Assembly: GCA_045634445.1 (NCBI GenBank) | Contig: JAZRAG010000078.1 | Coordinates: 36 to 64,035, forward strand | From: Candidatus Spyradenecus sp. | GTDB taxonomy: Bacteria > Verrucomicrobiota > Kiritimatiellia > RFP12 > DVOR01 | Reading direction: 5' to 3' | Length of the DNA stretch: 64,000 nt | Shown: positions 1-19,098 of the stretch, piece by piece | Numbering within the stretch: the first letter of the stretch is position 1 | Layout of the letters: each line of letters starts with the position of its first letter | Translations under genes and position numbers: made by a program | The notes under the pieces: generated by a model | What the model was told of the DNA's origin: nothing | The model's input: the letters and a program-made list of their open reading frames with translations, nothing else | Databases searched by the model: none

Positions 1-156
1 AATAATTGGTTTGCAATCACTTATTTAAATAATTTTATCCCCAAAACTCTTTTTAGTACAATGCATCTTCAAATGTACTATTACGCAAACCCCAAAAACG
101 CATTCCTAATATGCATTTTCCCAAAAATCTATAGTACAAAACTCGTTAAACTGATA
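1..156 (+). repeat. Direct repeat A, copy 1 (may extend beyond the window start)
   Basis: 1..156 matches 1036..1191 with one mismatch (CGCAAAC vs CGTAAAC). Confidence 0.95.
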
Positions 157-172
157 ATCTAAATATGACAAG

Positions 173-913
173 TCATTGAATTGCTTCAGTGATTAGACGA
201 CATGTATACTTTTTCTTTAAAATCGTTTTTAATAAAAATTTAAGAAAGTCAAAATTAAATACTTTAAACAATTCAACTGTTGTTTCAAATTTCTTATTTG
301 ATAATGATGTAATTATTATTTTTCTACCGTAAAAATTTGCATTAACATCTTCCCAATGGAAAAACTTCTTTTCTGGTGAGATAATTTTCCAACGAGAGAG
401 AACAATCCCATGATTAAAAAGTTCAACAGGGCCAAACTTAACACCTTCGCCATTCGCTAATTTATCAAGCATTTTAGCAACAATATGTGGTCCAACGACC
501 TTAAGAAATGTATGAATAAAACCTACATAAGTTGATTCTCTAGCCATCCCACCTAAACATAATACATTTTTCTCCTTACCTTCAGGTGTTTCTATTTTCA
601 TAACAATAGAGTAATTTGTTGGCGTAGGAATTTGATTGATTATTTCTTGTTTAGCCCAATACGAAAATCCTGTAATAATATTAATTGGAAATCGTTTATT
701 ACCAATCGTTACTGCATAGTTAGTAATTTCCATAGAACGATTAACGAGAATCCCTCGTGAAATGGATAAATAAGAGATTTCTTTACCTTGTGGTATTGTA
801 GATTGATGGCTGACTTTTCGTGCATTATTTTGAGAAGGCTGAATAGTGCTACCACAATTAGAGCAGAAGCGTGCACTCTCATTAACTTGTGTACCACAAT
901 GCGAACAGAACAT
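173..913 (-). CDS. Zinc-ribbon domain protein (CxxC..CxxC N-terminus) with uncharacterised C-terminal domain
   Basis: 246-aa ORF starting MFCSHCG...FCSNCG. Confidence 0.8.
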   Translation of the reverse strand: MFCSHCGTQVNESARFCSNCGSTIQPSQNNARKVSHQSTIPQGKEISYLSISRGILVNRSMEITNYAVTIGNKRFPINIITGFSYWAKQEIINQIPTPTNYSIVMKIETPEGKEKNVLCLGGMARESTYVGFIHTFLKVVGPHIVAKMLDKLANGEGVKFGPVELFNHGIVLSRWKIISPEKKFFHWEDVNANFYGRKIIITSLSNKKFETTVELFKVFNFDFLKFLLKTILKKKYTCRLITEAIQ

Positions 914-1035
914 AAACTTACTCCACTATAAATCAATAACAACACGAATATATCACATTAGCATCATAATGTCTAATTGCCGTTAGTTACATTTATCAAT
1001 CTTTCAATCAATTGTACTACTGATTTACTGTCCTA

Positions 1036-1191
1036 AATAATTGGTTTGCAATCACTTATTTAAATAATTTTATCCCCAAAACTCTTTTTAGTACAATGCA
1101 TCTTCAAATGTACTATTACGTAAACCCCAAAAACGCATTCCTAATATGCATTTTCCCAAAAATCTATAGTACAAAACTCGTTAAACTGATA
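1036..1191 (+). repeat. Direct repeat A, copy 2
   Basis: Near-identical to 1..156; contains AGTAC/GTACT motifs at 1090, 1110, 1168. Confidence 0.95.
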
Positions 1192-1218
1192 TAAGCAGTC
1201 CCAAAATGAAACTAAAGA

Positions 1219-1500
1219 TTTCATTTCTTCAATACTTTGTACTATATTTGCCCAGCCGGAACTTATTCATTTACAATAACTTATCTTGAATATTTTATGG
1301 CGGGCGATTTTAGGCTTAAAATCAGTACAATCTGTACTATCCGTGCAAAATTTAAACAGTACATTTTTTTGGGGGCCAACACTTTGAAGGGGAAATTTCC
1401 TCTCGGGAAGAAATCTTAAATAGTACAATTTTTAGGCGGGGACTTTTTAGCCCTGTATAGAAAATTCTAGAAAATAGTACGATGCCCTGAAGACGTGAAA
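1219..1500 (+). repeat. Imperfect direct repeat B, copy 1 (left flank of defence island)
   Basis: Aligns with 18626..18908; all six AGTAC/GTACT motifs are conserved. Confidence 0.9.
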
Positions 1501-1557
1501 GGTACCATATTGATAAGGAAAATGGTACCATATTCTGTTGGTAAATGGTACCATATT
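1501..1557 (+). repeat. Three GGTACCATATT direct repeats with 23-bp period (iteron or protein-binding-site like)
   Basis: Copies start at 1501, 1524 and 1547. Confidence 0.85.
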
Positions 1558-2308
1558 CTTCAGCAATATTAGCATTTTTCAATTTGAAGAAGGCTATGAT
1601 TCCATTTTCAATATTAGCCTTTTTGATTTAAAAAATGGGTGTAGCGCTTCGCGAAGGAGTTTTAGAAACCACAGAATACAGAAGGATATGCGCCCGAGCA
1701 CAACGTGCTGGGAAATACACAGAAAAGGGGCTACAGGTGGGGATTAACGCTAAGAACACAAGGAGAAGCGTCGAGCTTTTCGTAACACAAGGGCTTTGCC
1801 CACGAAAAGCCAACGCATCTGCGAAGCATGTAAAGGGCTGCAGGTGGGGGGAGTGGCTGCGCCACGGAGCAATTAAATGATGCACTATCCCTTTTATCGC
1901 TTCTAAGGAAAGCGCGCATCACCCCATGGCTTAACGCATCTGCGAAGAACGGACTCCCCAAAGTCCAAAACCGCATATGTGCGAGCGGCGAAATGTGTTC
2001 ACGAAGCAGACGGAAAATCAACCACAGATTAAGCGAATAGGGTCGCATGCGGAATTAAACCACATATGAAACGAATTGATAGAAATAGGACTACAAGAGG
2101 TGTAACTGCAACTTGCCATCAGGAGTTGCCAGTATACTTTCCGACGACATCACGTCCGTAGCAGGTAAACTCCCAATTGCCTTTTCCACATTGGCCAAGG
2201 CGGCATTCTGCGTCAAGCTCGCCTCAGCAATGATTGCCCTACCGTAAGCGACTCTGATACGGCTACCTGTGTTGCGGTTCATAGTGAGCCAACAGAGTTT
2301 CAAAAAAA

Positions 2309-5024
2309 TTACGGATTCCCATAAAAACTCCCGGCAGTCTTTCGTTCTCCGAATATAAAATTGGCGATTTTTTCATACTCGTTACTGTCGTTCGTAACAA
2401 GCCTCAGCAGAGGAATATTGTTTTTGGCAAAAATGCTGTTTTTCAATTGATCCCGTTTGGATTGCCTGGTTCCGGATTTATGAAAATTGTAACCATCCAC
2501 CTCTATCCCGAAACAAGGAGTTTTGCCAAATTTTTCGTAAATCAGGAAATCAATATGAGTATTGGCATTACTCAAATACACTGCTTCCTCTTCTGACAAT
2601 CTCGGATTACTCCGGAATATCTCCCGCAAAGGGATGTGCATCCGGAAACAATAACGTCGGTCAACATCATTTGCCTGAAGAATCCCGGATAAGACTTGAT
2701 ATATAATTTCCTCTGCTGGGGAATCAAAAAATAAGTGTTTATACTGATCGCAGTTTAAATGTTGCTGATATTCATCGTAAAGCATATCAAACACCGAAGT
2801 GATATTCCCTTGCGTAAACGCACTCTTGTCTAAATCATAATAACGGATATAATTTACTAAATCCCCGATGCAATTATCCCATTGCTGGTTTGAGGATGAT
2901 ACCACCAGATGAAATTCTTTTTTCGCCCGGGAAACGGCAACATTGATCAATTGCTCATCGGCAGTAAAATCGGATATTTGATTATCCACGGTTGACATAA
3001 TGATCACATCTTTTTCACGCCCTTGAAATTTGTGGACGGTGTGACCGCCAAGTCGTTCTGCCTGTTCCCGGAAAGGCGAACATAAGCCAATAGAGTCTGC
3101 GGGATAATGGTGATTTTGCACCAAATCATTGACCAAATTATCAATCTCCTGGCATTGCCGTAAGTTAAAATGTCCACGGGCATGATTGCCGGGAGCGGTA
3201 AAAAGCACTTTCAATGCCGGATTATTGCTCCATTGCGAATGGATCACCAGGTTATTGTCATAAAATTTCTGATTGCAAAAGCCAATAATCAACGGATCAC
3301 AGCGGTAATGTTCGCAAAGGGTAGTATTGGGGATTGCCGGAAGTGCCTGCTGCAATGAACTTAAAATACTTTGCCCAGCGTGATATTTATATTCATCGGC
3401 AATGTTGCACGAAGAATTCAATCCTGTCAATTTCAACTCATCTTCGGCAGTAATAACACACGGCAGTTGTTTATCATCCCCCACAATGACAACATTTTTT
3501 GCACAGGCAATCGCCACTGCTCCGGTACAGAGATCAACCTGTGAAGCCTCATCCATAATCAGCAAATCAAAACCGCCTCCCGGCATAAAATGATTTATCA
3601 TAAAGGTTGTTGATAACAACACCGGATATTCAGACAAAAAATCTTCATTCCGTAAATCCGATTTATAAAACTTTCTCCGTTCTTTATGGCAGACAGAATA
3701 TTTTTTGCGTAATTTCACCTTTAATAATTGCCATGACAACAAATTGAGAGTTTTGTGCTTATTTTCAAAATCAGCATTGGCGAGAGCTTTTTCAAGTTCG
3801 GCAACTTCGCTCTGTAATTCTGAAGATTTTTTCTGATAATACAGTTTTTTCAGGGCAACTGAAATTGTTTCAAGCGGTTGATTCCAAAATGTAAAATTCC
3901 AATGACGGCAAAATAATACTTGCCAGAGTTTGAACCAAAACGATAATTGTTTCTGCTTAATGCTGTGCATATTGCACTTGCTGAAAAGCAACATTAACTT
4001 TTCAGAAGATATTGCACAAGGCAATTGTGGTACATTCGGATAGCATTGCGTAAATTTTTCAGCTTCAATATCCCATTCGTGAAGTTGTGAAAGTTTTCTT
4101 TTCAACTCATTTTGTTTTTCAAAAAGAGTTTTCAATTCCCGGTGTAACGCATATAACCGTTGCTCATCATGCAAAGTAAAATCAATATTTTCATTGAGCC
4201 ACAACGGATAGTTAGGTTGGTTTTCTAAAAAATTCTCCTGATTGGCTTTGTTGCCGAGCAATGCAACCATAAAATCCAAGCCATTGGCGGCAGACAGTTT
4301 TTCCACAACATTCTGTATGGCGGAATTGTTGTTGGAAACGATTGCAACCCGTTGCCCATTAACAACTGCATTGACTAAAATGTTCAAAATAGTTTGAGTT
4401 TTACCAGTTCCCGGCGGTCCCTGAATCAAACTTAATGAGTTGGAAAAGGTTTGTTCAACAGCATTTAACTGGCTTTCATTGCATTGAAACGGGAAAATAT
4501 TTTTTTATCCGAGGAGCAGATTCTGGTAATACTCCGGAAAGATAAGTATACAGCGGAGAATTTACCGGAATATCTTTGATTTTTTCCAATGCATCAGCAA
4601 TAATGGTATTCGCTGGAGCATCCGGATCTTCAGACGGCAAATTCTTAACCATTTTTGCAACATTATGCAAGTAGTCAAGTACATCCGGCACACGGGTTTT
4701 CAGAATTTCAAAATCGCCGTGATGCAATTCCGTTTTTCTTTGCTTAGCGAAAAAGAGTTTCAAAAAGCTCCCGAATAAAACCTTTTTCTCTGCATTGAGT
4801 TCAATGCGACCATTGATTGCAATGTCGTTTTCTATGAGCGCAGGTTTTTCTGAAAAAATGATGTTTTTTCTGGCGTATGCAAAAGTTTTTTCGCTGTTAC
4901 GAAAAGAAATATCGACAAAATCGCCTCGGGATTTTATAGATTCCACATCTCCTGTCAAATCCTTAAATCCCTGTCGCTTGTCAACAATTAAAAACTTCTG
5001 CTCATCCATTTTCTGCGTAATCAA
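2309..5024 (-). pseudogene. SF1 (DNA2/NAM7-like) helicase with C-terminal DUF2726/Vsr-like nuclease domain, split by a frameshift at an A7 run
   Basis: ORFs 4476..5024 and 2309..4429 join through the alternative frame NIFPFQCNESQLNAVEQTFSNSLSLIQGPPGTGKT. Motifs GPPGTGKT, MDEASQ, EHYRC, TVHKFQGREKD, NVAVSRAK; C-terminal HIDF...IEVDG..FH. Could be an assembly error. Confidence 0.8.
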
Positions 5025-5055
5025 CTTTATTTATTCAGCATCAAATTTCTATTCT

Positions 5056-5803
5056 TCACAAAAACAGATGATTCTCCTTGCGCCCGCCCAGTTTGGGAGC
5101 CATTTTTTCGGTGGCGGCTTGCATGAGAGCCGGATCGAGGTCGCGGGCGTTTTTGGGGCAAATGTATTGGCAACGCATACAACTGATACAACGATCTTTA
5201 TCGGTTTTGCGGGGATCAGTTTTGTCGATCGCGCCCACCGGACAACGGAAGCACAAATTCCGCATTTATCGCAAGCATCATTGGATTCGGGCTTGAAAGG
5301 AATGTTGGTAAGTTCCTTGTATGAGCCATGACTTCCGGCAAGGTTCAACTCTCCGAAAACGCCGCTGTCAAGTTTTTCGGTGATTTTTCGGGCAAATTCC
5401 GCAAGCTCCAGTGCATCTTCTTTATCTGGACGACCGGCAGCAAACTGCCAGAAAATGGAGTGTTCAGCAACAGCAGCGACCGCCGCCACACAAATAAATC
5501 CGCAACTTTCAAGAGTATCCTGCAATTCGGTCAAAGTATCATTCCACTCCCGATTGCCATAAACACAATTCAAGACCACTTTCGCCCCATTACCAGAAAT
5601 CTTGAGCCGCTCAATGGCAACCTGCGGAACCCTCCCGGCAAACGTCGGAACAGAAATCAAACAAACATCCTCCGCTTGCAAAGCCATTTTTCAATATCGC
5701 AGCAAACATCCACCTCGCAAACCTCTCCACCGAGATTGCGCACCAGAATATCCGCCACCTTCTTCGTACCGACCGTCGGACTGAAACAAATGTTATAAAG
5801 CAT
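5056..5803 (-). pseudogene. Flavodoxin-like/4Fe-4S ferredoxin fusion (EFR1-like), two single-base frameshifts
   Basis: Starts MLYNICFSPTVGTKKVA; fragments carry CDKCGICAS, CPVGAI and CISCMRCQYICP. Frameshifts at the T5 run 5687-5691 and near 5244. Confidence 0.8.
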
Positions 5804-5827
5804 TGTTTTCTCACGCTATCTGCAAAA

Positions 5828-7831
5828 TCAAATTTTTAATATGTCAAGCATTTTTGCTTGATGATTTTTTATTTCTTCAAAAGTCCATGTCTGCTTATCG
5901 TGACATATTTGCATCATAATCATAAATTTTAAAGAGGCAACACTGACTTGTTTGACTTTACCAGAACTATCTAAATAATGGTCTAATTTTGTTTTCGGAC
6001 TCCAGTTAGAGCCAGAGCTGTTAATATCACTACCAATCATCGCATAATTACCCAAACAATTAATCTCTATTTGAGTTGGATTGCCATTTTTTCCGTCTGC
6101 GTTTGCTTGGGGGAAGTAATGTTCTAAACTACGCCGGGTGCGTGAAAAATAAAATTTTTGAAAAACAGGTAAATCAAAATCACTGCAACCTAAAGAATCA
6201 AAAAAATTATTTCTCTCAATTGATCCTTTTTCTACTTTTTTTCCACGTAGTTCATCAGCATATTTCTGCCAAATTTTGTAATCAAGATAATTAAATACAA
6301 ATAACGGAATTCCGGCAGATCTGTCGCCTATACCTGAGCCATAAATATTTTCAAATTCATTAACATTGTTTTGACAAGAAAGATTCAAATTATCATTATC
6401 TAAAATTTCATTATCAAAACTACCAGGGAGAGGTACATTGATTTCATTAAGATTATCATCTTTCAAGTAAATATCATTAAAATATTTACAAGCTAACTGC
6501 TCTAAAAATACAACATATTCTTTATAGGATTGCTTATCTGGTGTGTACCAGGCAAATAAATACAACAAAACGTATAACAAATAATTCTTTCGCTGACGAG
6601 CTGTAAATGATACTTCAAACATAGAAAGCAGTTGCAGAGCTTTATCTTGCCAATACTCATCTGTTATTAAATTTTTGGGGTATTGTCGAGCATTTTCTCC
6701 GTTTTGCCACAATTGAAGTTTCCATGGATTGTTTTCCATTGTGTCATCTTCACAGGAGTGATGCACGATAAAATTATCAAGAAAGAATTTTGCCTTGAGC
6801 AGGTTATAACAGAAATCTTTCACAAATTCTGTAGACAAACTGATTTTATCAAATTCATTAATCAATTCTTTATCATCTAAATTAAAATCATTAGGCTTGA
6901 AATCTTGCTTGTGATTTCGTATAAGAGTTAATTTCAAGACGATTAAAAGAAAATTGGAAAAATCAATAATTGGTTGGAAAAAATCTTTTTTATCCTCACT
7001 TGTTTTGTTCTGCTGCAGATTTGTTTCAAAATTCAACAAATTCTCGATTTGTTCGGTGTCAAAACAATCACAAAAATCCGGGAATTCATCAAACCTCTGG
7101 ATACAAAATTGCCGAAATTCTTGTCCCCAAAGTTCAGTTTTTGAAATTTTCTGTTGAATATAAACATTCATCTCGCTGCAGCATTCCCAAACTGTATTGA
7201 ATTTGCTTCCGAGCGTTCTATCATTTTTCAATGTTGCAAGCAATCGTGCTTTTATAATTTCATGTTTCTCTAACTGTTCACCACGAGAATTCATTATTTC
7301 AAAGTAGTGATTCAAGTCTATATCACGCGGTACTTTATAGTGAATAATATGCACATTGTTCAAAAAATACTTCTTGAAGCTTTCCAACTGTTCGTTAGAG
7401 ATTATTTCTTTAATTGCATTTTCAGCAAAACGATACCCATTAATAAGCCCCTGATCCTGTTCCTGAATAGCACACTTGGGGAGAGCTTTTAATGTATTGT
7501 CAGATTTTTCCCGAGCACGATAGGTTAAAGGATTGGAAATAGGAATTTTCAAAGCCTTCAAAATAAGGTTAATGGTGGTTAATCGCTGTTGTCCATCAAT
7601 AATTTCAAAGATATTATCACCTTTATAAAAGGATACAAGTGTACCTATATAATAAATACTTTTTTCATCTTTATTGAATGCATCAAACACATCTTGGATT
7701 AATGCGAAAACTTCATCCTTTTCCCACGCATAGTTACGCTGATATATTGGAATTTCCCAATAAGCATTTTCGCCATTATACAACTGTTCAATGGAGATTT
7801 CCTGCAAAGGGATCTTGTTATTATTCATCAC
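5828..7831 (-). CDS. DUF262 + DUF1524 (HNH) GmrSD-like restriction endonuclease
   Basis: IPIYQRNYAW, IIDGQQRLTT, FEIMNSRG; C-terminal SLEHYFPQ...LGNY...N HNH-like motif. Confidence 0.85.
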   Translation of the reverse strand: MMNNNKIPLQEISIEQLYNGENAYWEIPIYQRNYAWEKDEVFALIQDVFDAFNKDEKSIYYIGTLVSFYKGDNIFEIIDGQQRLTTINLILKALKIPISNPLTYRAREKSDNTLKALPKCAIQEQDQGLINGYRFAENAIKEIISNEQLESFKKYFLNNVHIIHYKVPRDIDLNHYFEIMNSRGEQLEKHEIIKARLLATLKNDRTLGSKFNTVWECCSEMNVYIQQKISKTELWGQEFRQFCIQRFDEFPDFCDCFDTEQIENLLNFETNLQQNKTSEDKKDFFQPIIDFSNFLLIVLKLTLIRNHKQDFKPNDFNLDDKELINEFDKISLSTEFVKDFCYNLLKAKFFLDNFIVHHSCEDDTMENNPWKLQLWQNGENARQYPKNLITDEYWQDKALQLLSMFEVSFTARQRKNYLLYVLLYLFAWYTPDKQSYKEYVVFLEQLACKYFNDIYLKDDNLNEINVPLPGSFDNEILDNDNLNLSCQNNVNEFENIYGSGIGDRSAGIPLFVFNYLDYKIWQKYADELRGKKVEKGSIERNNFFDSLGCSDFDLPVFQKFYFSRTRRSLEHYFPQANADGKNGNPTQIEINCLGNYAMIGSDINSSGSNWSPKTKLDHYLDSSGKVKQVSVASLKFMIMMQICHDKQTWTFEEIKNHQAKMLDILKI

Positions 7832-9294
7832 TTATTATCTCCGTATAAAAAGTTAAAACGTTCAAAAAATGTCAAATAATTTTGCGGAACTCCGGCAATT
7901 ATCTCTCCCCAATCGCGTTCTTGATTTTTGGCAATCATTGAAATCGGTGAAATTTTATCCGCCAGTTGTCCGAATAATCCCACAGGAGAGTCTGCTTCGG
8001 CGATTAGCTTATAAATATTGAATGAATTCACTATTTTTCCATTGCCCATGATGTAATTTTGAGCTGTTGGCCATCCTACATTATAATATTGTGCTCGCAT
8101 TGAGTAAGCCCAAATAAATGCTTGAATAACAAACTGGTTCAGCATTTCCAAATCTTTTTCATCAGGCTTTTCTGGACAAAATCGATCAACATAGAGTAAA
8201 ATTGCCGTATCAAATAGCAGACGAGTAATTCTGTTGCCCGTCCCATTCTTATACCTATGTAGATCAAGTGTCTTTACAATTTCGTTATCATTAATGTAAT
8301 ATCCGGAATATTTATCATTATTTTGAATATCCTGCAAAATATTAAAATAGTGCTTTGCGTAATCAAAGAAAGGCTTTCCAGCAATAATTGGAGTATCAAT
8401 TTGAAATGGTTTCAGATTGTGCATTCCTGATACAAACGGCATGGATGAATTATTAATCATATCTGCATATGCAAATGCCCCCTTATAAAATTGCGCATAC
8501 GAAAAATTATCTGCTCTGGTTATGCCTTTGAATTTTTGGATATTTTGCTCATTCAAATCCCACGCTTTATTTCCTTTAACCCATTCTTTCAAGCGGTAAA
8601 GGTAGTCACTAAAGAGAGAAGATAATGTTTTTTGATCCATATCTTCCCACTGTTTAACAGTTTTTTCTGTTATTTCAGCATCCAGATCATTCATTTCACG
8701 CAAATGATACGCTTTCAATAGATCGTGCGGATAAAGTTTTTTACCTCGAGCATTTTGCGAATCAAAAAATTGAAACGCTTCTGATAAATTATCTGTAATA
8801 ACTACAATTATTTCGCAATTATTTTTTATGTACTCTAAAAGATCTGCACGCTCTTTATCATCACGGATATTTTTAACACGTCGAAGCAATGCATGAAAAT
8901 TTATCGGTACATTGCGAATATTGTGCTGATTCTTTGCTAAAGGCTGCTTCAAAAATCTCAACTTCTCTGTCAAACCGTCATCAAGCGCTTTCAATAAAAG
9001 GGTAAATGTTATGATTCTTTGTTGACCATCAACGATGTTATACGTTTCGCGTTTTTCATGCAGAATCAAGGTTCCGACACGATAAACTTCTTTGTTTGTA
9101 TTTTTTGCTTCTATAATATCATCAAACAATTGCAAGGTGCTTTTCGCACTCCATTTATACGGTCGTTGATAATCAGGAATACGTAATTCTACATTATCTA
9201 TAGGCTGCCCGCTTGAGTTGATTGTGATTCGGTTATTAAGTAACAAATCTCCAATTTTTGCGATTGCCAAAGTTAATTTCATATTTTCACTCAT
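7828..9294 (-). CDS. DUF262 (GmrS/ParB-like) domain protein
   Basis: IPDYQRPYKW, IVDGQQRIIT, FFDSQNARGK; 4-bp ATGA overlap with the downstream gene. Confidence 0.85.
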   Translation of the reverse strand: MSENMKLTLAIAKIGDLLLNNRITINSSGQPIDNVELRIPDYQRPYKWSAKSTLQLFDDIIEAKNTNKEVYRVGTLILHEKRETYNIVDGQQRIITFTLLLKALDDGLTEKLRFLKQPLAKNQHNIRNVPINFHALLRRVKNIRDDKERADLLEYIKNNCEIIVVITDNLSEAFQFFDSQNARGKKLYPHDLLKAYHLREMNDLDAEITEKTVKQWEDMDQKTLSSLFSDYLYRLKEWVKGNKAWDLNEQNIQKFKGITRADNFSYAQFYKGAFAYADMINNSSMPFVSGMHNLKPFQIDTPIIAGKPFFDYAKHYFNILQDIQNNDKYSGYYINDNEIVKTLDLHRYKNGTGNRITRLLFDTAILLYVDRFCPEKPDEKDLEMLNQFVIQAFIWAYSMRAQYYNVGWPTAQNYIMGNGKIVNSFNIYKLIAEADSPVGLFGQLADKISPISMIAKNQERDWGEIIAGVPQNYLTFFERFNFLYGDNK

Positions 9295-9760
9295 GGATCA
9301 AATCTCCATTTTGATTTACTATATTCAAGCCCTGACCGGAGATGCCGTAGGCTTGGGGGATGTTTTCGTTTTGGAAGACGGCGAGGTATTTGGTCATGTT
9401 GGGAGCGAGTTTCCCGGAAAGCATTTCATCTAAAGTCATCCACTTGACGTTGCCTTCAACGGAACCGGTCAGTTCTCCGGAAAAGGTACTGGTTTTGAAA
9501 AGAAAAACAAAATATTGCGACTGTTTTATGGGATTATACCATTGAATATATCCACAATTCTGCAAGTTGGAAACGGTCAGTCCCGTTTCCTCCTGAACTT
9601 CGCGGATAATGGAAGCCACGACCGTTTCCCCCGGTTCAACATGTCCCCCGGGAAAAGTCAACCCCGGCCACGGATTCGACGGCTTGGGCAAGCGTTCCTG
9701 CACCAGAACGCGCCCATCCGCATCCGTTATCATGCACATATTACAAAGTTCAGTTTCCAT
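9287..9760 (-). CDS. NUDIX hydrolase (MutT-like)
   Basis: Nudix box GGHVEPGETVVASIIREVQEETGL. Confidence 0.9.
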   Translation of the reverse strand: METELCNMCMITDADGRVLVQERLPKPSNPWPGLTFPGGHVEPGETVVASIIREVQEETGLTVSNLQNCGYIQWYNPIKQSQYFVFLFKTSTFSGELTGSVEGNVKWMTLDEMLSGKLAPNMTKYLAVFQNENIPQAYGISGQGLNIVNQNGDLIHE

Positions 9761-9802
9761 TTATGACAAAAGTCCTAAAATTTCTTTTCTGCTTTTTTGA
9801 AA

Positions 9803-11662
9803 TCATCCAATGTTCTTGTCTTTAGTAACTTGTTTTATAATCTTAACATCTTCAGAAGTCAAATCATATTGCTGAATCAACCATTTTTCAAATTCAGCGC
9901 AAGATTTCTCTATAACAACGTTTAACTCTTCTTGAGAAATTCGTGGAATCCCCAATTTTTTTATATAATTATGGGCAAGAGAATAATGATTAGTTCCGTA
10001 CGGTTTGCTTGTTGATAAAATATAAAACCAAAAGATACATGTCTCCATAATTTTTTTCAAAAAAAGTAAACTATTTGTATCTTTTGCCATTGCAGCCATG
10101 CCATTATAAAATAACATGTCATTATCATCACAGTAGACGGGGACGAATGCTTCTGTGGCAATGTGCGGAAAAAATAACTTCCCTTGATTAAAAACAAATC
10201 CTTGATTGCGTCCAAACGCATACCAATAAGTATATGTTTTTTTCCCTTTGTCTCTTGTTCTTAAAATTGCTTTTTTGCTCTCCAAATATTTGTATGCATA
10301 TGGATAATTTTTTTTAAAAAAATCCTCTGCCAAAAGTTTTTTTGTTTCAATATCATATGGGAATATAACATACTGTATATTTTCTGAAAAACTTTTCTCT
10401 GATGATATCTTGTTGGAATTTACAATTTTTGTGCAAACATTTTTTTCAATCTTATATTCAACACTATCTGACTGCAAGAAATAAAATGTCTTATTTTCTC
10501 TAACTGGCGAAAAGATATAAACATCGTTTTTCAATGTCGCAATACCGCTGGATGTGTCGTAAATATTTCCCAGCGGTTCTCCTGTATTTTCAATTTTTTT
10601 AATAATATCTACACTTGTTAAATTCCATCCATTGGAATTATCCAATAATTGCCTAGCAACAGGTGTCAGCATTATTTCCGAAAAGCATATTTTACTTTTC
10701 ATTCTAAAATAGTTAATAAAATCAGATGATTTTTTCTTAACAATACAGATACAAGTATAAGTAGATTTACTTTTAAAAACAGGAATGCTACCAAAATCTA
10801 AAATTTCCAAATGTAATTCCCCTGAATTCAAAAAATGACGTAGATTCCGCCCATTCACACTTTTAAAAAAAGTGTTCATCGTGATAAATCCAAGAACTCC
10901 ATTGGGGGCAAGCATTTCTACACCAATTTCAAAAAATGGTATATATAGATCTGGGTGTCCGACATTGCATGTTTTAAATTTTTTAAGCAATTTCAATGTC
11001 TCATCATTGAGATGGCGTGAGCAAACATACGGGGGATTACCTACAATAACATCAAACTTATCTTTACCGCAATGTTGCCTCCAATCAAAAGACAGAGCGT
11101 TCCCTGTAAAAATGTTAAATTCGAAAGAATCTGCATCTTCACCGGCAAGAACGGCGGCCAAGGTTAATAATATTTTTGATCTTTCGACGGCATATTTCTC
11201 AATGTCAACGCCATAAATTTGATTTTTATAGATATCTCTATAATTAATATGTAAATTATTATGTAAAAAATTTGCAGCAGTCAGTAAAAATCCTGCACAA
11301 CCACAAGCTAAATCACAGATACTGGGCAAAGTGTTTTGCTCTAAATTTATACTATTTTTTACAATATATTCTCGTATTGCTTCTGGAGTGTAAACTGCTC
11401 CGTTAACAATTTTGTCTGCAGGTGAAATGATGAATTCAAAAACCTCAATCAAATCTTCCAAACTTTTAATCTTGATTTTTTTATTGAGCAACATGAAAAG
11501 AGAAAAGTCTGAATCATCTTTTTTTATACTCAAGGAGTTTATTAGTTTGTTTTTGGAGCATTTGACATTGTTTTGTATTAAAAACACAGAGACAACAAGA
11601 CGATTGATCTCATCTGTTTTTTGAGTATATTTTGTCAAAAATTTCAACTCGTTTTTATTCAT
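9803..11662 (-). CDS. N6-adenine DNA methyltransferase (Eco57I/TaqI-like, gamma class)
   Basis: VYTP, motif I DLACGCAGFL, motif IV VIVGNPPY, C-terminal TRD-like region. Confidence 0.9.
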   Translation of the reverse strand: MNKNELKFLTKYTQKTDEINRLVVSVFLIQNNVKCSKNKLINSLSIKKDDSDFSLFMLLNKKIKIKSLEDLIEVFEFIISPADKIVNGAVYTPEAIREYIVKNSINLEQNTLPSICDLACGCAGFLLTAANFLHNNLHINYRDIYKNQIYGVDIEKYAVERSKILLTLAAVLAGEDADSFEFNIFTGNALSFDWRQHCGKDKFDVIVGNPPYVCSRHLNDETLKLLKKFKTCNVGHPDLYIPFFEIGVEMLAPNGVLGFITMNTFFKSVNGRNLRHFLNSGELHLEILDFGSIPVFKSKSTYTCICIVKKKSSDFINYFRMKSKICFSEIMLTPVARQLLDNSNGWNLTSVDIIKKIENTGEPLGNIYDTSSGIATLKNDVYIFSPVRENKTFYFLQSDSVEYKIEKNVCTKIVNSNKISSEKSFSENIQYVIFPYDIETKKLLAEDFFKKNYPYAYKYLESKKAILRTRDKGKKTYTYWYAFGRNQGFVFNQGKLFFPHIATEAFVPVYCDDNDMLFYNGMAAMAKDTNSLLFLKKIMETCIFWFYILSTSKPYGTNHYSLAHNYIKKLGIPRISQEELNVVIEKSCAEFEKWLIQQYDLTSEDVKIIKQVTKDKNIG

Positions 11663-11670
11663 ATGTCACC

Positions 11671-12360
11671 TCACACGAACATTGGAAACAATTTGTTCCT
11701 ATTGAATACTTCATGCGAGGATTCTGCTGAAAATCCATTAAAATATGGTTCCCAAAACATATCTTGCGAAAACTTAATTATAGTCTTGTAATCATTGTCA
11801 TTGAATATGGTTTCGAACTTTGGATAACATTTTCTTTCACAAAAATTGTGAAAAATAAAATGTAGGCATAAAAACGGATCCATAGGGGGATATGCTATCC
11901 GTGGAGCCTTAAACAATAATATTTCACCAGAATTCTTATCTTTTATGCCTCGTCCACCACAATGCATGTGATAATAGGGATGTGCCAAATTCTTTTTTGC
12001 TGAAGAATCATCTTGATCAAAATGCCAACAATAATGGCAATTACTACATGAGCCGCCAAAGGCAAGAATATTTATTTCATGTTTTCTTATCGCATTTAAC
12101 TTGTTAAACCTATCCACAACAAATGAAACATTTGCATTTATTGCAAGAGAAACACTACCCCCGTAATTAAAGCATAACGCTGCTTGTTCTTTTAAATTAA
12201 CAACAAGATTAGTAATTTCTGCATTAATACAATCTTGTTTTCGAACAAATTGAATGCGTTGTACAATGTCTGCACAATCAACAACGGAACAAGCATGTCT
12301 TTTTAGTATGCCTTGCATTTGTGCTTTATAAGTATTAAGTATGGTTATTACTGCTTGCAT
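11671..12360 (-). CDS. Uncharacterised protein with WHFD...HPYYHMH...PRIAYPPMD motif
   Basis: 229-aa ORF overlapping the response regulator gene and 8 bp from the MTase gene. Confidence 0.75.
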   Translation of the reverse strand: MQAVITILNTYKAQMQGILKRHACSVVDCADIVQRIQFVRKQDCINAEITNLVVNLKEQAALCFNYGGSVSLAINANVSFVVDRFNKLNAIRKHEINILAFGGSCSNCHYCWHFDQDDSSAKKNLAHPYYHMHCGGRGIKDKNSGEILLFKAPRIAYPPMDPFLCLHFIFHNFCERKCYPKFETIFNDNDYKTIIKFSQDMFWEPYFNGFSAESSHEVFNRNKLFPMFV

Positions 12361-13421
12361 TTAGCGTCCTTTTCTAACTGACGAAAACGTTGTTTTGCCT
12401 CTTTTGTTGCATACTTTTTGTATTTATCACTACCTTGCAAAATAGCCTCAAAAGAAATATATTCTTGTTCTTGCCATGGATAAAGATTACTTTGTAACAA
12501 CTCAAAGCCTTCAAGAGGATCCAATGCTTTCAACGTTGTCTGACAAATTGTCCAAAATCTACAACTTTGGGCATACGCAGGCAAGCTAATTGCATGCATT
12601 TTTTTTAATCCAGTTTTTTGAATAATCGCTTGAACTCTTTCTTCCGCAGTCAATTGCCTTAAAAATGTTTTACTAATATTCTTATCCCACCATAACTCAA
12701 CGCCCTGCGCCCACCAACGCGGATACATAGTACTAAAGACTCCATTGTATTGGTAGGAAGATAATAAATTTTTGAGAGCCTCCCAATCTGCAGAATTTTT
12801 TGAAACACCTAATCTTGCAGCCAAAACGTCCTCTCCAATTAAAATGCCAATCGGTTTAACAATCTGGTACAATACAAAAATTGCATTTTCATGCAAACTT
12901 GAAGAGTGTTCTGGTAATAAAAAAGTATTTTCTACAATGTCTGGTAAATGGATACCTTTGGGCACAGCAAGAATTTCACATAACTTGTGATGACGTTTAA
13001 TAAAATCATAGGCTTGAATGATATCTAACAGCATGCAGTTGTAGTAGTCCGGATTTTTGAGGTATTTTTCTTTTATGATAGAGTAGTCAAACAATTTACA
13101 AGAAGACATTTGCTTATAAAAGCTTGTTATTTTGCTTTCTGACGAAATAAGAATAATCGGAACATCATAAAATGACATAACACCGGGGGTGCGTAATGCT
13201 TGAGCTAAAGCGGGGGCATCATAACAATTATTTCCATTTGTCAAACGAAAATCAATAACAACTAATGAATAATTACCATTTTTCACCATTGTTGGCATTT
13301 CAGCAAAAGAATGTGGTTTTTCAAAGGAAACATTAAATTTTGTCTCCCGCTTTAATTGATTTGCTATAGTTGTAGCATTACAATCATCTATCAATAAAAT
13401 ATTATAAGTCATATTTTTCAT
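12348..13421 (-). CDS. Response regulator receiver domain with unknown ~230-aa C-terminal domain
   Basis: ILLIDD acidic pocket, VVIDFRL phosphoacceptor, IILISS, conserved Lys (SIIKEK). Confidence 0.85.
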   Translation of the reverse strand: MKNMTYNILLIDDCNATTIANQLKRETKFNVSFEKPHSFAEMPTMVKNGNYSLVVIDFRLTNGNNCYDAPALAQALRTPGVMSFYDVPIILISSESKITSFYKQMSSCKLFDYSIIKEKYLKNPDYYNCMLLDIIQAYDFIKRHHKLCEILAVPKGIHLPDIVENTFLLPEHSSSLHENAIFVLYQIVKPIGILIGEDVLAARLGVSKNSADWEALKNLLSSYQYNGVFSTMYPRWWAQGVELWWDKNISKTFLRQLTAEERVQAIIQKTGLKKMHAISLPAYAQSCRFWTICQTTLKALDPLEGFELLQSNLYPWQEQEYISFEAILQGSDKYKKYATKEAKQRFRQLEKDAKCKQ

Positions 13422-15765
13422 AATCCTTATCTGTTGCTTGCGGGAATTCTATACGAAAACATGTGGAAAAACCTTCTGGCGGAGATACGAGTTCTATTGA
13501 TCCACGATAACTGTCAACAATATCTTTGACTATCTTCAAACCCAAGCCACAACCGTGCATATCATTTTGCGAGAATTCACTGTATGCCTTGGGTGCAGTC
13601 GTAGTGAAAAATTCTTCAAAAATATGAGGTGCATCTTCTTCTGAAATACCATCACCAGTATCAGAAAACTCAAAAAATACTTTTTCATTTTCTCGTCCAC
13701 AAGAAAATATGATTTTTCCAGGGACTCCAGTGCGCTTTATTGCTTTTACAGAATTGCTAAACAAATTGAATAGTATCGCAGCTAATTCTGATGGATGCAT
13801 TGGTTTTGTGAACAAGCGATATTCATGTACATCTATTTCTGGCATTTCAATGTCATAATTTTTGGCTGTAGCAAGATGACTATTGCGGAAGCTATTTAAA
13901 TGTACAAAAATATCAAGAGGTTCAAGTTCTGTAATAAGACTATGGGAAACAGCTTCATCGAAAAAAGATGTATACGAATACAAAGCCGCAATATTTTCAG
14001 ACAGATTCTTTTCTGTCTTTAATACTACTTCTGCATCGGAAGCATTTTTACGCAACCCAACCAAATCGCAGGTTATGTAATCGACGCTATTTTTAATTTC
14101 ATGGGAAAACTGAGCCATTGACAATCCAATACTCGCCAATATACGCAAACGATTTCGTTCTGCCAAATATTTTTTTTGGAAAGCTTTTTTGGCATTTTCG
14201 GCATCTTTTAACGCGGTCTTTAAGGCTTTCTTTTTCTTTCTTTTACGCTTTTGGGCTTCTATGGAAACATCATTATCTTCTTCATCAAGCTCATCAATCA
14301 AACGAGCAATATTTTTTAGTTTTATCTCCAACGGCTCCCAACTTCCGTCATCATTTTTTTGCTGAGCTGCGGCCAGTTTTACTCCTCGAGAACGATTTAT
14401 TTGCAGTGTCGCTGAAATAATCAACTTAAAAAGCATATTTTTCAGTTGAATGAATGATTCCGTTTCCAGCAAGCCTTCACGGCTAGAGGTTTCACAGAAA
14501 ATATTTTGGGGATCCCTAATATCAACATAACCCCAATAGTTGTTGTTACCATGAGGAGGCAACAGAACTCTGTCTCTCACAGATTTATCTAATTTTAACC
14601 AGTCATCTCCAGGTTCGCCATATGGAAGCACTCTAAAGCCATTCCTGTAAAGTCGTATTCCTCCGTGCTTTTTTGTTTCTTCCTGCAACGCACGCAATTT
14701 ATTTGGTGGAACATGTTTTGCATCCAAAATGAAATAAAAAGCTTCAAATATCATTTCAGGAAGTTGTAAAAAGTGTTCTGGTATTGCTTCATTTTGCTCT
14801 GAAAAGTCAGATGATACCGTACCAGTCAAGTTTATATCAAATTTTTCACTATAAATACTATAATGAGCAATGCCTTTTTCATCTACATTACCCGTTATTT
14901 TTGCCAAAGCATAATCTGTTGCATTGAGTAAATCTGGTTTTACGAGTTTTTTCTCTCCAGCGTCAATTTTCAAAAAAGATACAGAAAAATAGTCCTTTGT
15001 TTCATCGGCATCTGCATTTTTTTCAATACAACCAGTATCTTTATCGAATTTTTGTGGAAATTCAGGCGGAGCAATACAGGGAGAAATGACATCTGTGATA
15101 TAGCGATATATTCTTTTTACTGAGGTCGTTGTCCATCTGTCGCGAAGGTTATTTATTATTAATTTGGTCCCTGTTTTTTTAGTCTCTGCATCAATTGATA
15201 TTTTATGCGAAACTAATGCTAATTCAGAAATCGAGTCATAATCATTCCAATCAATTTCCAACTTGAGAGCCTGTGGGGAATCGTCTGTTTTCGTAATAAT
15301 TGTTAAGTTTGTTCCTAAACGCTGAACAGCAAACCGTCCAATTCCTTTTTGACCGGCTCGTTTACGAAGAAATTTCTTAGAGAATGGATTATTTATTTTA
15401 TTGGCAGATGAAATACGCATAAATCCATTGATTAAATCAGCTCTCGACATCCCTTCGCCATTATCTTCTATAATTAAAGTTCCTCCCCCATTGTCTGCAT
15501 CAATGAAAGATAAGGTAACAACTCTTGCATCCGCATCGTAAGAGTTTTTTACAAGTTCTGCAACAGCTGTTTCTTGCCGAGAAACCAATTCTTGGCCCAG
15601 TCTTGTTATAAGTCCGGAGTCTACTGAAAAACGTGCATATTCTTGATCGCACAGTGCAATAGCTTGAGATAATTGCAATATAGCATTATAATCAGTAGGC
15701 GTCTTGCTTAACTCTTGTGCAAGTTCTTTTTTCAAGAAAGAGAGTTTATCTGCCTGCTCGCTCAT
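13402..15765 (-). CDS. GHKL (MORC/MutL-like) ATPase fused to a complete histidine kinase
   Basis: N-terminal ELVKNSYDADA, DNGEGM, GQKGIGRFA; C-terminal H-box FSHEIKN, N-box NLFSNSVKA, DTGDGI, FFTT, GLGL. Confidence 0.9.
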   Translation of the reverse strand: MSEQADKLSFLKKELAQELSKTPTDYNAILQLSQAIALCDQEYARFSVDSGLITRLGQELVSRQETAVAELVKNSYDADARVVTLSFIDADNGGGTLIIEDNGEGMSRADLINGFMRISSANKINNPFSKKFLRKRAGQKGIGRFAVQRLGTNLTIITKTDDSPQALKLEIDWNDYDSISELALVSHKISIDAETKKTGTKLIINNLRDRWTTTSVKRIYRYITDVISPCIAPPEFPQKFDKDTGCIEKNADADETKDYFSVSFLKIDAGEKKLVKPDLLNATDYALAKITGNVDEKGIAHYSIYSEKFDINLTGTVSSDFSEQNEAIPEHFLQLPEMIFEAFYFILDAKHVPPNKLRALQEETKKHGGIRLYRNGFRVLPYGEPGDDWLKLDKSVRDRVLLPPHGNNNYWGYVDIRDPQNIFCETSSREGLLETESFIQLKNMLFKLIISATLQINRSRGVKLAAAQQKNDDGSWEPLEIKLKNIARLIDELDEEDNDVSIEAQKRKRKKKKALKTALKDAENAKKAFQKKYLAERNRLRILASIGLSMAQFSHEIKNSVDYITCDLVGLRKNASDAEVVLKTEKNLSENIAALYSYTSFFDEAVSHSLITELEPLDIFVHLNSFRNSHLATAKNYDIEMPEIDVHEYRLFTKPMHPSELAAILFNLFSNSVKAIKRTGVPGKIIFSCGRENEKVFFEFSDTGDGISEEDAPHIFEEFFTTTAPKAYSEFSQNDMHGCGLGLKIVKDIVDSYRGSIELVSPPEGFSTCFRIEFPQATDKDYEKYDL

Positions 15766-15767
15766 AA

Positions 15768-15962
15768 TTATTCTCCTGCTCGTCCAGACTTAATCCACAT
15801 ATCCACTTCTGACAGTTTGAATTTTCAGAATTTGCCGATGCGGTGTCCAGGGAGATTTTTCTTTTCAAGGTACACATATATCGTCTCCCGGCGGACACCG
15901 AGATATTCTGCGATTTCTTTGATGAATAGCCATCTGTCTTCTATCAAATCAAGCTTTTTCAT
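15768..15962 (-). pseudogene. Excisionase-like (HTH_17/MerR-type) DNA-binding protein with in-frame TGA
   Basis: Manual translation MKKLDLIEDRWLFIKEIAEYLGVRRETIYVYLEKKNLPGHRIGKF*KFKLSEVDMWIKSGRAGE; TGA at 15825-15827 where this family usually has Trp. Confidence 0.8.
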
Positions 15963-16360
15963 TGCAATATTCCTGAAACGCCCAAACTTTCATTCTTTTG
16001 GAAATAGTGTCACCACATATCGTTCGGGATAATATATCAATATTATCGTGATTTTTCAAACAGAAATGCAAGAAAAAGTGTTAGTTTTATGCAGTTTTTG
16101 CTGGCTTTACTTCATTTTCAGGATGTGTCATGAGAATGGAATCATTCTTGTTGTTCCATATTGCTCAAATGCCTGTTGCAAGTGTTCCTGGTCGGAATCA
16201 CTGTCAGTTGCATCAGGATAATGCGAAACAGGAAGTTCCCGGCAAGAAAGAGTTCCAGCAGAATAAATATATTCTCCATACTCCAGACTGCCGCCTTCTT
16301 CATAACGAAGCAAAAAAGATTTTATGGGGGCAATTTCGTTGAGAAACTTTATCAGCGTAA

Positions 16361-17632
16361 TGTGTCAAATAAAAAGTGCACCAAAGATGTGGTAAATGGT
16401 TGAAGATGTGTGAGTTAAGTGTGTCATTGATATGTGCACCGAAGGAGATGCGTTCTATGGGGAAGGGACGGCATGCCGTCCCTTCCCCATAGAACGAGCA
16501 GAATGTTGCGTAGAAAAGAGGCGATTTAGCATTCTTTCACACTGTGCTCGAAGTTTTACAGCATAACATTTTGGAGGTGGCGGTAATGGGATTATTTGGG
16601 CAAGTCTTTGATAAGGTGTTAAAGGGTTGTCAATCTTACGTCTATAAGAAATCCATTTGGATGTAACTCGCCGTACTTTTGAAATTTGGCGTGTACATGG
16701 AATGCAAAGATTGTAGAGTAGACTCCATTGATCACACAATTCAGTAAGGGCTTGATATTGATTAAAATCGTCAAATCTTAAATCTCCAAAAAGGGTCCGT
16801 ATAATTGAGCCATTTTTCTGTTCAATTCGGTGATTGTCATTTTTATGATATGATAGGGACGTGAGCGTGTAAAAAGAACGTTGGGATAATAGGTTTTGAG
16901 AAACTCTAAAAGATGATGGTTAATGAATTCTCCACCATTATTTACATGGATGACATCGGGCGTGAATGGAAGACTTTCAAAAATGTGTTTTAACGCCTTA
17001 CATGTTGCCTCTAAGCCACGATTCCAAACAGGTGCACACATACTCCACTGCGTCTCAACTTCAGTAACGTGTAAGATCCAAAAGAAACTCTCGCGCATAT
17101 TGCCCCCGCAGAGTGCCACCGTGTCAACTTGAAGGACGAAAGTGCCCTTTTTCTCGTATAACGTTCCAGGTGCAGCAGGAATTCCTGCTGCAATCGTAGC
17201 GTTATTCCCGGAACGTTTATTAGCAGAACGCATCTGAAACTGGTGTGGCCTCAGAATACGTGCCATCGTTGAAGGACTCATCTGCAAAAGTTCACGAACG
17301 ACCTCTGGAGAGAAATAAACATTGGGACGCGCCTCTTGGTAGTCGGCAATTGCTTTTTCAATTATCGAATGCAAATACCGGCTACACATTTGCCCAAAAG
17401 CGAACCAAATTTTAACAAGACGATCACGTGCTTCTTTTGAATACGTCGGGGCACGATCACGGTGCTTTTTGTAGACACGGCTTCCACACAATAATCGAAT
17501 AACATATTTTCGTGAAAAACCTGTCATTGTAACAGCTTCATCAATCAATGCACTTCGCTCTGAACGGTGTTTTGCACGTGCATACCTCTGCTTCATTTTA
17601 GTCATGTATTCCCTCGTTGTTTTTGCTGTCAT
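16361..17632 (-). mobile_element. Degenerate IS with rve-type DDE transposase (frameshifted pseudogene)
   Basis: ORFs 16778..17632 and 16455..16739 are rejoined by removing the TGATA duplication at 16846-16855. LQVDTV and RIEQKN motifs; second Asp appears as N (HVNNGGEF). TGTGTCA-N7/8-GTGCACC repeats at 16361 and 16420 may mark an end. Confidence 0.75.
16451..16496. repeat. Perfect 46-bp spacerless palindrome
   Basis: CGTTCTATGGGGAAGGGACGGCA|TGCCGTCCCTTCCCCATAGAACG. Confidence 0.95.
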
Positions 17633-18597
17633 GGCGTAGCGGTTACTGCGACATAAGTTTTCTTTTTAAAGAAACATAATATCTCACGAATTAACCCATT
17701 AATCCTTGTCGGATCCTCATCATCCTTTGCCGTATTAACACTCGCATAATCTGCTTCGTCATCCAAAATTAACGTTGGGACACGTAGTGCATTAATCTCA
17801 TTTTGAGAACGCTTAAGCCACTTCTTTAAAGCTGTTAGTACTGTTACATTCCTCTTACAAACAACTACAACAGGAATGTTTCTCTCGAGATTTACATTTC
17901 GCAAATCTAATATTGATTTTCCAACATCGTTATCAAGTATAGTCAAAATTAGCGGCGTCCGGCCTTCATTTTCTGGCCTCTTACCTACGCCAAGAATCTT
18001 TGAGCTATCCGTTGATTGTGCACCAACAAAATCGTTTTCCAAGCGCTCCTGTGTTTGCTTTCTAAGAGCTTCAATAGTTCCTGTTAAAACAATGAAAAGT
18101 TTATATCCAACATCTGCAGCTTTATTCATTAACGCTGTAAAGTTTATTGTCTTACCAGACTGAACATCGCCAAGAATTAAACCTTTTTGATTAAATCCAT
18201 CTAACCCTGGATTTCCGAGAAGGTCCATGATTTTATCACTGGTCTCATCCAGTTTTGTTAACGGACTTTCTTTCGGATTAATTGGATTCACAAATCGGTC
18301 TGCACACTCTGTTTCCAGCTATTCTTTGAATCGATTCCAATAGAAGTGATTAAGCTGTGGTTTTCGTTCTGGATACCACGATTGCAGTCCCTGGTCTACA
18401 ATTGCTCGCCCAGACACCTGCTTTAAATCACACGACGTTTTAAGTTGCTTCTTTTGTATTTCAAAGGCTTCGTCTGAAATATCTTCAATAAGCTTCAACT
18501 TTTCTTTTACTTCTTCAACTATTTCATCAATATCCTTTTCAAAAAGAAAGTCAACACCCCTCTCTTGCATCCGCTTGTGCAACGATCTGCTAACCAT
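17629..18597 (-). pseudogene. Z1-domain helicase-like protein (MzaB-like), internal amber stop and C-terminal truncation
   Basis: GDVQSGKT, LILDDEADYAS, YVAVTATP. In-frame TAG at 18319-18321 separates the two ORFs; reading ends at the transposase start. Confidence 0.8.
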
Positions 18598-18625
18598 GAC
18601 AGCAACAAGCTCTATATCTCTTCTT

Positions 18626-18908
18626 TTTCATTTCTTCAATACTTTGTACTATATTCGCCCAGTCATAACTTATTCATTTACAATAACTTATCTTGAATAT
18701 TTTGTGGCGGGAAATTTTAAGCTTAAAATCAGTACAATTTGTACTATCCGTGCAAAATTTAAACAGTACAAAATCTTTCCGTGCAAATTAATTTAAGGGG
18801 AAATTTCCTCTCGGGAAGAAATCTTAAACAGTACAATTTTTGGTCGGGGACTTTTTAGCCCTGTTTAGAAAATCCTAGGAAATAGTACGAAGCCCTGAAG
18901 AAATGAAA
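18626..18908 (+). repeat. Imperfect direct repeat B, copy 2 (right flank of island)
   Basis: Aligns with 1219..1500. Confidence 0.9.
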
Positions 18909-19098
18909 ATAAAGAGTCGCAAATTGAGTCTAAAGAGGCTTAAATTTTGGGGATAATAACACTAAACACCAAGAATATCACACATCATAAAGCAATGCAC
19001 TCACAAGTCATATGCCTAAATATGTTTACTTTTACAAATTCAGACATTTAATTGACGTGTTGAGGATGTGAACCAGAAGGTTGTTTTAGAGGTTGTTT

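Follow-up and report, generated by a model that had tools for sequence, protein, structure and literature searches.

The repeats described below have counterparts in several known systems. The Correia elements of Neisseria are MITEs, and IS26 is an autonomous element of 820 bp that encodes Tnp26, has 14-bp termini and generates an 8-bp duplication. The Kiritimatiellae, to which the present locus belongs, are abundant gut bacteria that have barely been studied, and their mobile DNA is, to our knowledge, essentially undescribed. In Acinetobacter, a 439-bp MITE pair flanks an integron (PMC3934969). The window analysed here, that is, the whole stretch of 64,000 nucleotides from Candidatus Spyradenecus sp., carries at one end two kinds of repeat, A and B, which are best read as belonging to a superfamily of miniature elements without coding capacity (~200-290 bp) abundant in ruminant-gut Kiritimatiellae.

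As with the Correia elements and the Acinetobacter pair, these repeats are short, non-coding, high-copy and intergenic, show inverted termini of ~26-27 nt and a target duplication, fall into subfamilies with internal deletions and are able to bracket cargo. They differ from those MITEs in forming a new sequence family of the Kiritimatiellae, in the internal reiteration of the terminal motif, in same-family neighbours that are always direct and in duplications that surround whole arrays, and no parent insertion sequence was found in the window or at 15 loci. With the IS26/IS6 pseudo-compound transposons they share directly oriented copies with common cargo segments, one duplication outside the array (6-8 bp here), an architecture in which new units would be added beside a resident copy, and a cargo of accessory genes, whereas the elements here are of 200-290 bp and non-coding (no IS6-family DDE transposase), with termini unrelated in sequence to those of IS26.

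Integron attC sites and their CALIN clusters (attC without integrase) are likewise imperfect palindromic repeats between co-oriented cassettes, with defence cargo and no adjacent integrase. In contrast, the present elements have neither R''/R' GTTRRRY boxes nor IntI, end in TTTCAy... and ...rTGAAA, are conserved in their whole sequence and not in structure alone, and show variable target duplications and many solo copies in core DNA. Finally, the lambda-type attP likewise packs a short motif, repeated in both orientations, into ~250 bp of AT-rich DNA, but the elements here are present as hundreds of dispersed copies with inverted-repeat termini, have neither an integrase linked to them nor a constant core in common with the target, and contain no strict IHF site. 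As far as we have checked, the MITE type and the IS26-like array architecture are each known and it is their combination that is new: a non-coding family that reiterates its terminal motif, keeps strictly to direct orientation, has its duplications around arrays and brackets defence genes, all in a phylum that is unstudied. No description of elements of such kind in Kiritimatiellae was found in the literature searched.

Two pairs of related elements

The GC content of the window is 31-44% from position 1 to ~18,908 and 50-60% from 19,000 on. The elements lie in the low-GC part and at its boundary:

1..156, + strand: element A, copy 1 (A1); right 156 bp only, the rest cut off by the contig end; AGTAC motifs at 55, 75 and 133; 99% identical to 1036-1191
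994..1191, + strand: element A, copy 2 (A2); 198 bp, extent taken from the inverted termini; motifs at 1014, 1090, 1110 and 1168
1219..1500, + strand: element B, copy 1 (B1); 282 bp; 27-nt imperfect terminal inverted repeats; motifs at 1239, 1324, 1334, 1358, 1422 and 1476
18626..18908, + strand: element B, copy 2 (B2); 283 bp, where the low-GC island meets the 50-60% GC core; motifs at 18646, 18731, 18741, 18765, 18830 and 18884

The end of the source contig (64,083 bp) falls within A1, which indicates that the assembly broke in repeat A. An earlier note on this DNA had drawn attention to a dense array of ten AGTAC/GTACT motifs within ~470 bp, and the ten positions, listed above for A2 and B1, are all exact AGTAC or GTACT. 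Their density is far above that of shuffled controls, with ten motifs observed in 1012-1500 against a mean of 0.57 and a maximum of 5 in 5000 dinucleotide-preserving shuffles, and with 20 per kb in the array against 0.55 per kb elsewhere in the low-GC island. The motif has the extended form (A/T)(T/C)AGTACA(A/T)T, and B contains the internal palindrome AGTACAATyTGTACT. The recurrence of 1219-1500 at 18626-18908 was borne out as well (89% identity, all six motifs kept in the second copy), repeat A is real (1-156 against 1036-1191), and the spacer that had seemed to be replaced is one of three subfamily variants in alignment columns ~146-170, each of them present in more than one genome.

The terminal motif is reiterated inside B, and A2 and B1 adjoin, so that the AGTAC array is simply two adjacent members of one superfamily. 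In place of the single composite site that had been proposed, there are two separate elements, 27 bp apart, which are related through the same family architecture and each of which brackets a cargo block in direct orientation. A2 has the inverted termini TATCAATCTTTCAATCAATTGTACTA and TAGTACAAAACTCGTTAAACTGATA and holds no ORF of 60 aa or more, and its left ~90 nt align with B and with a further family, C, through the common boxes TCA..TTCAAT..TGTACT and CAATmACTTAT. Among the other loci (numbered L001 onwards), family C directly follows B in L011 and L012, a fourth family (D/E) is present in L003, L006/L010 and L011, and analogous termini occur in A, C and D, the hallmark common to the superfamily being a GTACTA-containing terminus. 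The elements often abut other members, as in A2-B1, in B-C at three places with different linkers, and in D against B.

In the model that follows from the earlier note, the array would be an attP-like site for a tyrosine integrase, with arm-type AGTAC motifs and IHF sites, so that cassettes would be excised and integrated site-specifically as in integrons or integrative islands. The repeated, oriented motifs, the internal palindrome and the co-oriented repeats around variable cargo speak for such a site, yet the supposed IHF-like words do not: the strict consensus WATCAANNNNTTR is absent from A and B, which contain one-mismatch versions only, and its nine matches in the window all lie elsewhere. 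Moreover, the ends of the elements differ from the R'/R'' boxes of integrons (GTTRRRY), core DNA has solo copies spread through it, no integrase was found in the cargo or recurring beside the elements at the 15 loci, and the window gave no Phage_integrase match. Contrary to the statement that no recombinase is visible in the window, a large serine recombinase (30108-31658) and a degenerate IS481-like transposase (16455-17632) are both there, and neither appears to be connected to the repeats; the former, the sole recombinase of the window, lies 11 kb away and belongs to a probable prophage.

Structure and copies of element B

The copies of B start with TTTCAyTTCTTCAATACTTTGTACTAT and stop with ATAGTACGAAgggccGAAGAArTGAAA (right end also given as ATAGTACGAA..GAAGAArTGAAA). 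The inner part of these inverted termini is the motif ATAGTACAA, ATAGTAC(A/G)A, which recurs three or four further times within the element, the internal copies being nearly invariant. In an alignment of 20 full copies with their flanks, the ends of B are sharp and the flanks outside them unrelated, while a second alignment, of 19 copies, is the one from which internal variants, termini and fold were read. B is non-coding, with a longest ORF of 60 aa and no conserved ORF in any copy.

An exact 28-mer of B was found at 15 sites on 13 contigs, which belong to four MAGs of Kiritimatiellae, namely Ca. Spyradenecus and its relatives in the gut of cattle, buffalo and sheep. These MAGs hold 20 further copies of the element, and each of them, although fragmented, has between two and six copies assembled. 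In metagenome (Logan) contigs from rumen and gut, B reaches 100-300 times the depth of the core flanks, a depth that sums several species; values of 200-1700 stand against ~6 in the adjacent core, with steps exactly at 18626 and 18908, and B1 behaves likewise. The survey of 15 element-bearing loci in five genomes includes solo copies of B in core-GC DNA (L001, L004, L005, L006=L010, L007 and L014) as well as pairs or triplets around low-GC cargo (the window, L002, L003, L008, L011, L012 and L013). Both elements are short and non-coding (282-283 bp for B, 198 bp for A) and have inverted termini, as MITEs do, and B has the duplications and the many copies of MITEs as well. Neither the window nor the 15 loci yielded an autonomous element or a transposase whose termini match, no protein family recurs beside the elements at those loci, and BLAST of A plus B against plasmid and phage collections gave no match. 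Two candidates were discarded: L015, the only return of a metagenome-contig scan with a degenerate superfamily pattern, is a chance match, and a 20-mer common to nine phage contigs in a viral-contig scan is not the element, the other viral scan being empty.

The terminal repeats of B can also be looked at as a closing stem of 27 bp, with a T.G wobble conserved in 17 of the 19 copies, and fold z-scores of -3.1 and -3.9 were obtained; in B2 the inverted repeats enclose 229 bp immediately upstream of the first cargo gene. These traits would be in keeping with a functional host element, such as a structured non-coding RNA gene, an inverton, or a promoter or terminator module, to which we concede a very small likelihood. 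Against an RNA gene, the covariation term is -0.26 kcal/mol, with compensatory change in 2 of 65 pairs, which is essentially no covariation, no Rfam match was obtained at E up to 1, and both strands fold equally via the terminal stem. The inverton was rejected too, as the internal orientation relative to the asymmetric termini is the same in all 19 copies and neither orientation variants nor strand-switch joints were seen in contigs. The promoter or terminator module was discarded likewise: sites resembling promoters or terminators are not in excess, and the neighbouring genes face toward or away from B without preference.

Cargo

The cargo blocks of the window, and the gene that follows B2, are as follows:

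173..913, - strand: A1-A2 cargo; a single 246-aa ORFan with an N-terminal zinc ribbon (Pfam Zn_Ribbon_1, E 5.5e-09)
1501..18625, - strand: B1-B2 cargo; a 17.1-kb low-GC defence island with all genes on the minus strand (GC profile, Pfam, NCBIfam, PADLOC)
2309-4429, - strand: Mokosh-like SF1 helicase with DUF2726, N-terminally truncated
5828-7831 and 7828-9294, - strand: two GmrSD-type proteins
within the defence island, - strand: NUDIX protein
9803-11662, - strand: type II methyltransferase
13402-15765, - strand: BbrUII/HgiDII-like GHKL ATPase
16455-17632, - strand: degenerate IS481-like transposase, frameshifted
17629-18291, - strand: MzaC-like fragment (N-terminal part), from a gene split by the IS481-like element
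within the B1-B2 cargo, - strand: 92-aa ORF
19099-20094: mutY-like gene, whose 3' end is 190 bp from B2

The large cargo is a defence island, as the earlier note had it, and in other genomes the same B repeat brackets different cargo, namely restriction-modification genes, methyltransferases and unknowns. In other loci the cargo includes IceA-type endonucleases, N6/N4 and C5 methyltransferases, a SAM methyltransferase, a HEAT-repeat protein and a secreted protein. One 0.76-kb gene of the window (212 aa, weak EFR1 ferredoxin-like match; 5051-5807) has a counterpart of 91% DNA identity at 3234-3992 of L013, a B-flanked region from a sheep-gut MAG. The single A-flanked ORFan has no homologue but itself among 5.8 billion proteins; homologue searches gave no near-identical proteins from other strains for this ORFan or the MzaC fragment, and none of three window proteins looked up in public assemblies had an exact match there. 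At the mutY site, relatives with a MutY of 76% identity have neither the island nor the elements, and in a relative at 61% the B array is on the upstream side of the gene instead of at its 3' end.

Some genes of the island are disrupted. The helicase ORF (2309-4429, - strand) has a TTG start and its AAA_11 profile match begins at profile position 21, which, together with the adjacent 182-aa ORF (4476-5024, - strand), suggests a disrupted or truncated Mokosh-like gene. The MzaC-like gene, of the MZA anti-phage system and with a Z1 domain, is split by a degenerate insertion sequence. The rve-domain ORF near B2 was considered as the transposase of B and rejected, since it is this same IS481-like element, with termini unrelated to those of B; its insertion sequence is multi-copy in metagenomes (15-37x against 5-9x). 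Upstream of the GHKL ATPase gene, at 15780-15960 (- strand), a small HTH_17/excisionase-like frame with an in-frame stop (MKKLDLIEDRWLFIKEIAEYLGV...) was read by eye.

Target-site duplications

Duplications were sought by setting the end of the left flank against the start of the right flank, either around a solo copy or around the outermost copies of an array:

L008, pair: CAGTGCGG, 8/8
L011, pair: CAATACGG, 8/8
L002, pair: CAAGCAC, 7/7
L003, three-copy array: CTTAATA, 7/7
L005, solo copy: CAATAGG, 7/7
L012, pair: TTAAGT, 6/6
1212..1218 of the window, left of B1: CTAAAGA, within a 21-nt-period tandem unit
18909..18915 of the window, right of B2: ATAAAGA (6/7 against CTAAAGA), followed by 21-nt-period units starting TAAAGAG

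Among 402 mismatched flank pairs, a match of 7/7 was never seen and one of 6/7 occurred in 0.5%, so that P(6 or more of 7) = 0.005. Single copies within arrays reach at most 4/7, which, set against the matches at the outer ends, indicates that the duplication surrounds the whole array. In the window, the flanks are similar at 22 of 28 positions and the target is a short tandem array with units starting TAAAGAG or TAAGCAG; the apparent 28-bp flank duplication was discarded for this reason, its length being one 21-nt period plus the 7 bp of a duplication inside the tandem repeat. No target duplication was found at four solo copies (L001, L004, L010 and L014). As a separate observation, the solo B of L007 (4088-4474) lies between the two halves of a 52-bp direct duplication (48/52 identical), for which a simple target duplication is inadequate.

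The duplicated sequences vary by locus, with a size of 6-8 bp, and as such they accord with transposition through staggered cuts (DDE-type), as opposed to recombination at a fixed core. For the attP reading, the differing junctions listed above (TAAAGA in the window) mean that there is no constant crossover core, so the model is effectively refuted and has next to no likelihood left; dispersal at high copy number, terminal inverted repeats, locus-specific duplications and the lack of a recurrent recombinase at the 15 loci are not what a tyrosine-integrase mechanism would leave. The idea of cassette stacking fared better: arrays of up to three copies (L003) make the term a fair one, although the tyrosine-integrase mechanism attached to it is unsupported.

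Orientation and divergence of paired copies

Neighbours of the same family are in direct orientation in all ten pairs (eight B-B, one A-A and one D-D), which would have P ~0.001 if orientation were random. A bias related to the replication strand was considered as the cause but is not borne out, because B and the genes around it run the same way in three loci and opposite ways in four. Within arrays, the copies of B are 85-89% identical, against a mean of 88% both across loci and across genomes, so that array mates are as diverged as unrelated copies and do not look like fresh duplicates, an argument against replicative duplication for B that may be biased by the fact that MAG assembly favours diverged copies. 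B is also mosaic, with 350 of 630 informative site pairs failing the four-gamete test and a PHI-like permutation P of 0.03.

Breaks between strains fall at the edges of B2. In runs X5 and X7, the end of the cargo (99.5% identical over 1 kb) enters different sequence exactly at 18625|18626, and in runs X1, X2 and X4 the core flank leaves the window sequence exactly at 18908|18909; in X1, the core flank at 18909 adjoins the right terminus of an A-like element, not B2. In run X24, one metagenome contig joins the right end of B (1501) to ~4 nt before its left end (1215), a joint that could stem from two B copies in head-to-tail tandem or, with lower likelihood, from the closure of a circle. The assembled contigs showed no circular intermediate made of an element plus cargo.

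Two transpositional explanations have to be weighed against these data. A classical composite transposon, in which two copies of B flank donor cargo and the outermost ends move B-cargo-B as a unit, would account for the duplications outside the arrays (perfect in at least five of seven) and for the divergence of the paired copies, and MITE-flanked composites are documented (PMC3934969). We nonetheless hold it unlikely, since inverted termini work in either orientation and yet all ten same-family pairs are direct, an identical composite at a second site was not seen, and the three-copy array of L003 has a single outer duplication. Replicative copy-in transposition from a circular donor, which gives a cointegrate as in the IS6/IS26 and Tn3 families, predicts what was observed, direct copies and a duplication around the array, and A1 and A2 are 99% identical, as expected for copies from a single event; the B copies of an array, however, are no closer to each other than unrelated copies, and for the system as a whole this route is quite improbable.

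Proposed route of cargo capture

The explanation that we consider probable is that the elements are MITE-like and that a resident solo copy serves as a landing pad for element-plus-cargo units, in the style of IS26 pseudo-compound structures, thereby bracketing defence genes. The direct pairs, the outer duplication, the diverged mates, the mosaicism, the foreign cargo and the strain breaks at B2 all argue for such a two-step course. It would start with the insertion of a solo element, often within short tandem arrays, giving a target duplication of 6-8 bp. A DNA unit with a same-family copy plus cargo would then recombine into the resident copy, through either a RecA-dependent Campbell-type or double-crossover exchange or a conservative end-targeted reaction as in IS26 translocatable units. 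The product would be element-cargo-element in direct orientation, with the original duplication outermost, and repeated rounds would stack more cargo. In the window, the outcome would be the 17.1-kb island between B1 and B2 beside mutY, and the single ORFan between A1 and A2.

The mobility enzyme of the elements is a predicted one, and the motif copies would most likely be binding sites for a DDE-type transposase encoded elsewhere and acting in trans. A further reading, which we put forward only tentatively, is that the elements do more than offer passive homology: a trans transposase recognising ATAGTACAA in families A to D would join circular element-plus-cargo units beside resident elements in a conservative, end-targeted way, as a counterpart, built on MITEs, of the translocatable units of IS26. 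On the other hand, the 99% identity of A1 and A2 counts against the landing pad for this pair, being a better fit to a recent replicative event, from which the A pair, whose outer flank is beyond the contig end, may indeed come.

The direct pairs with an outer scar suggest that defence genes could be exchanged without a linked integrase, as any repeat-bounded DNA could enter any resident copy. If the process were enzyme-driven, the translocatable-unit mechanism of IS26 type would reach beyond autonomous elements and into a new phylum, and if the trans-transposase reading were true, the elements would be a dedicated platform for the capture and stacking of defence genes across rumen Kiritimatiellae species. 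In any case, it is precisely at defence islands that these repeats interrupt metagenome assemblies, so that the defence content of MAGs is probably underestimated.

Tandem arrays and other repeats

Directly after B1, Tandem Repeats Finder and a repeat search detected a short tandem array:

1495..1569: three tandem 23-nt units, each with the palindrome ATGGTACCAT

In other metagenome copies the 23-nt array extends further left (loose ends at 1501), and analogous 22-nt arrays lie beside B in L005, L007, L008, L011 and L002. Arrays with a period of 21-23 nt, which also include 18910-18950, have a small palindrome per unit, with GTTTGA..TCAAAC types elsewhere. Such short tandem arrays seem to be preferred insertion targets of the elements, and may have a role of their own as candidate protein-binding iterons.

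Next to it, the region 1640-2100 is GC-rich and non-coding, with repeats 107-121 nt apart (AAGGGGCTrCAGGTGGGG at 1725 and 1832; AACGCATCTGCGAAG at 1812 and 1933) and small GC hairpins. It gave no Rfam match and is absent from the 28 loci compared, and its depth of 100-750x in rumen metagenome contigs points to another high-copy repeat family.

Finally, the right half of the window, from 30108 to ~64000, is probably a prophage region. Its serine recombinase (30108-31658, - strand) has Resolvase and Zn_ribbon_recom domains, and the phage-like genes comprise a DnaG-type zinc-finger protein (37219-39888), a lambda-family portal (43432-45012) and many ORFans. The 3' end of the recombinase gene overlaps tRNA-Ala(CGC) at 30125-30200 (+ strand), and the prophage is probably integrated at this tRNA-Ala.
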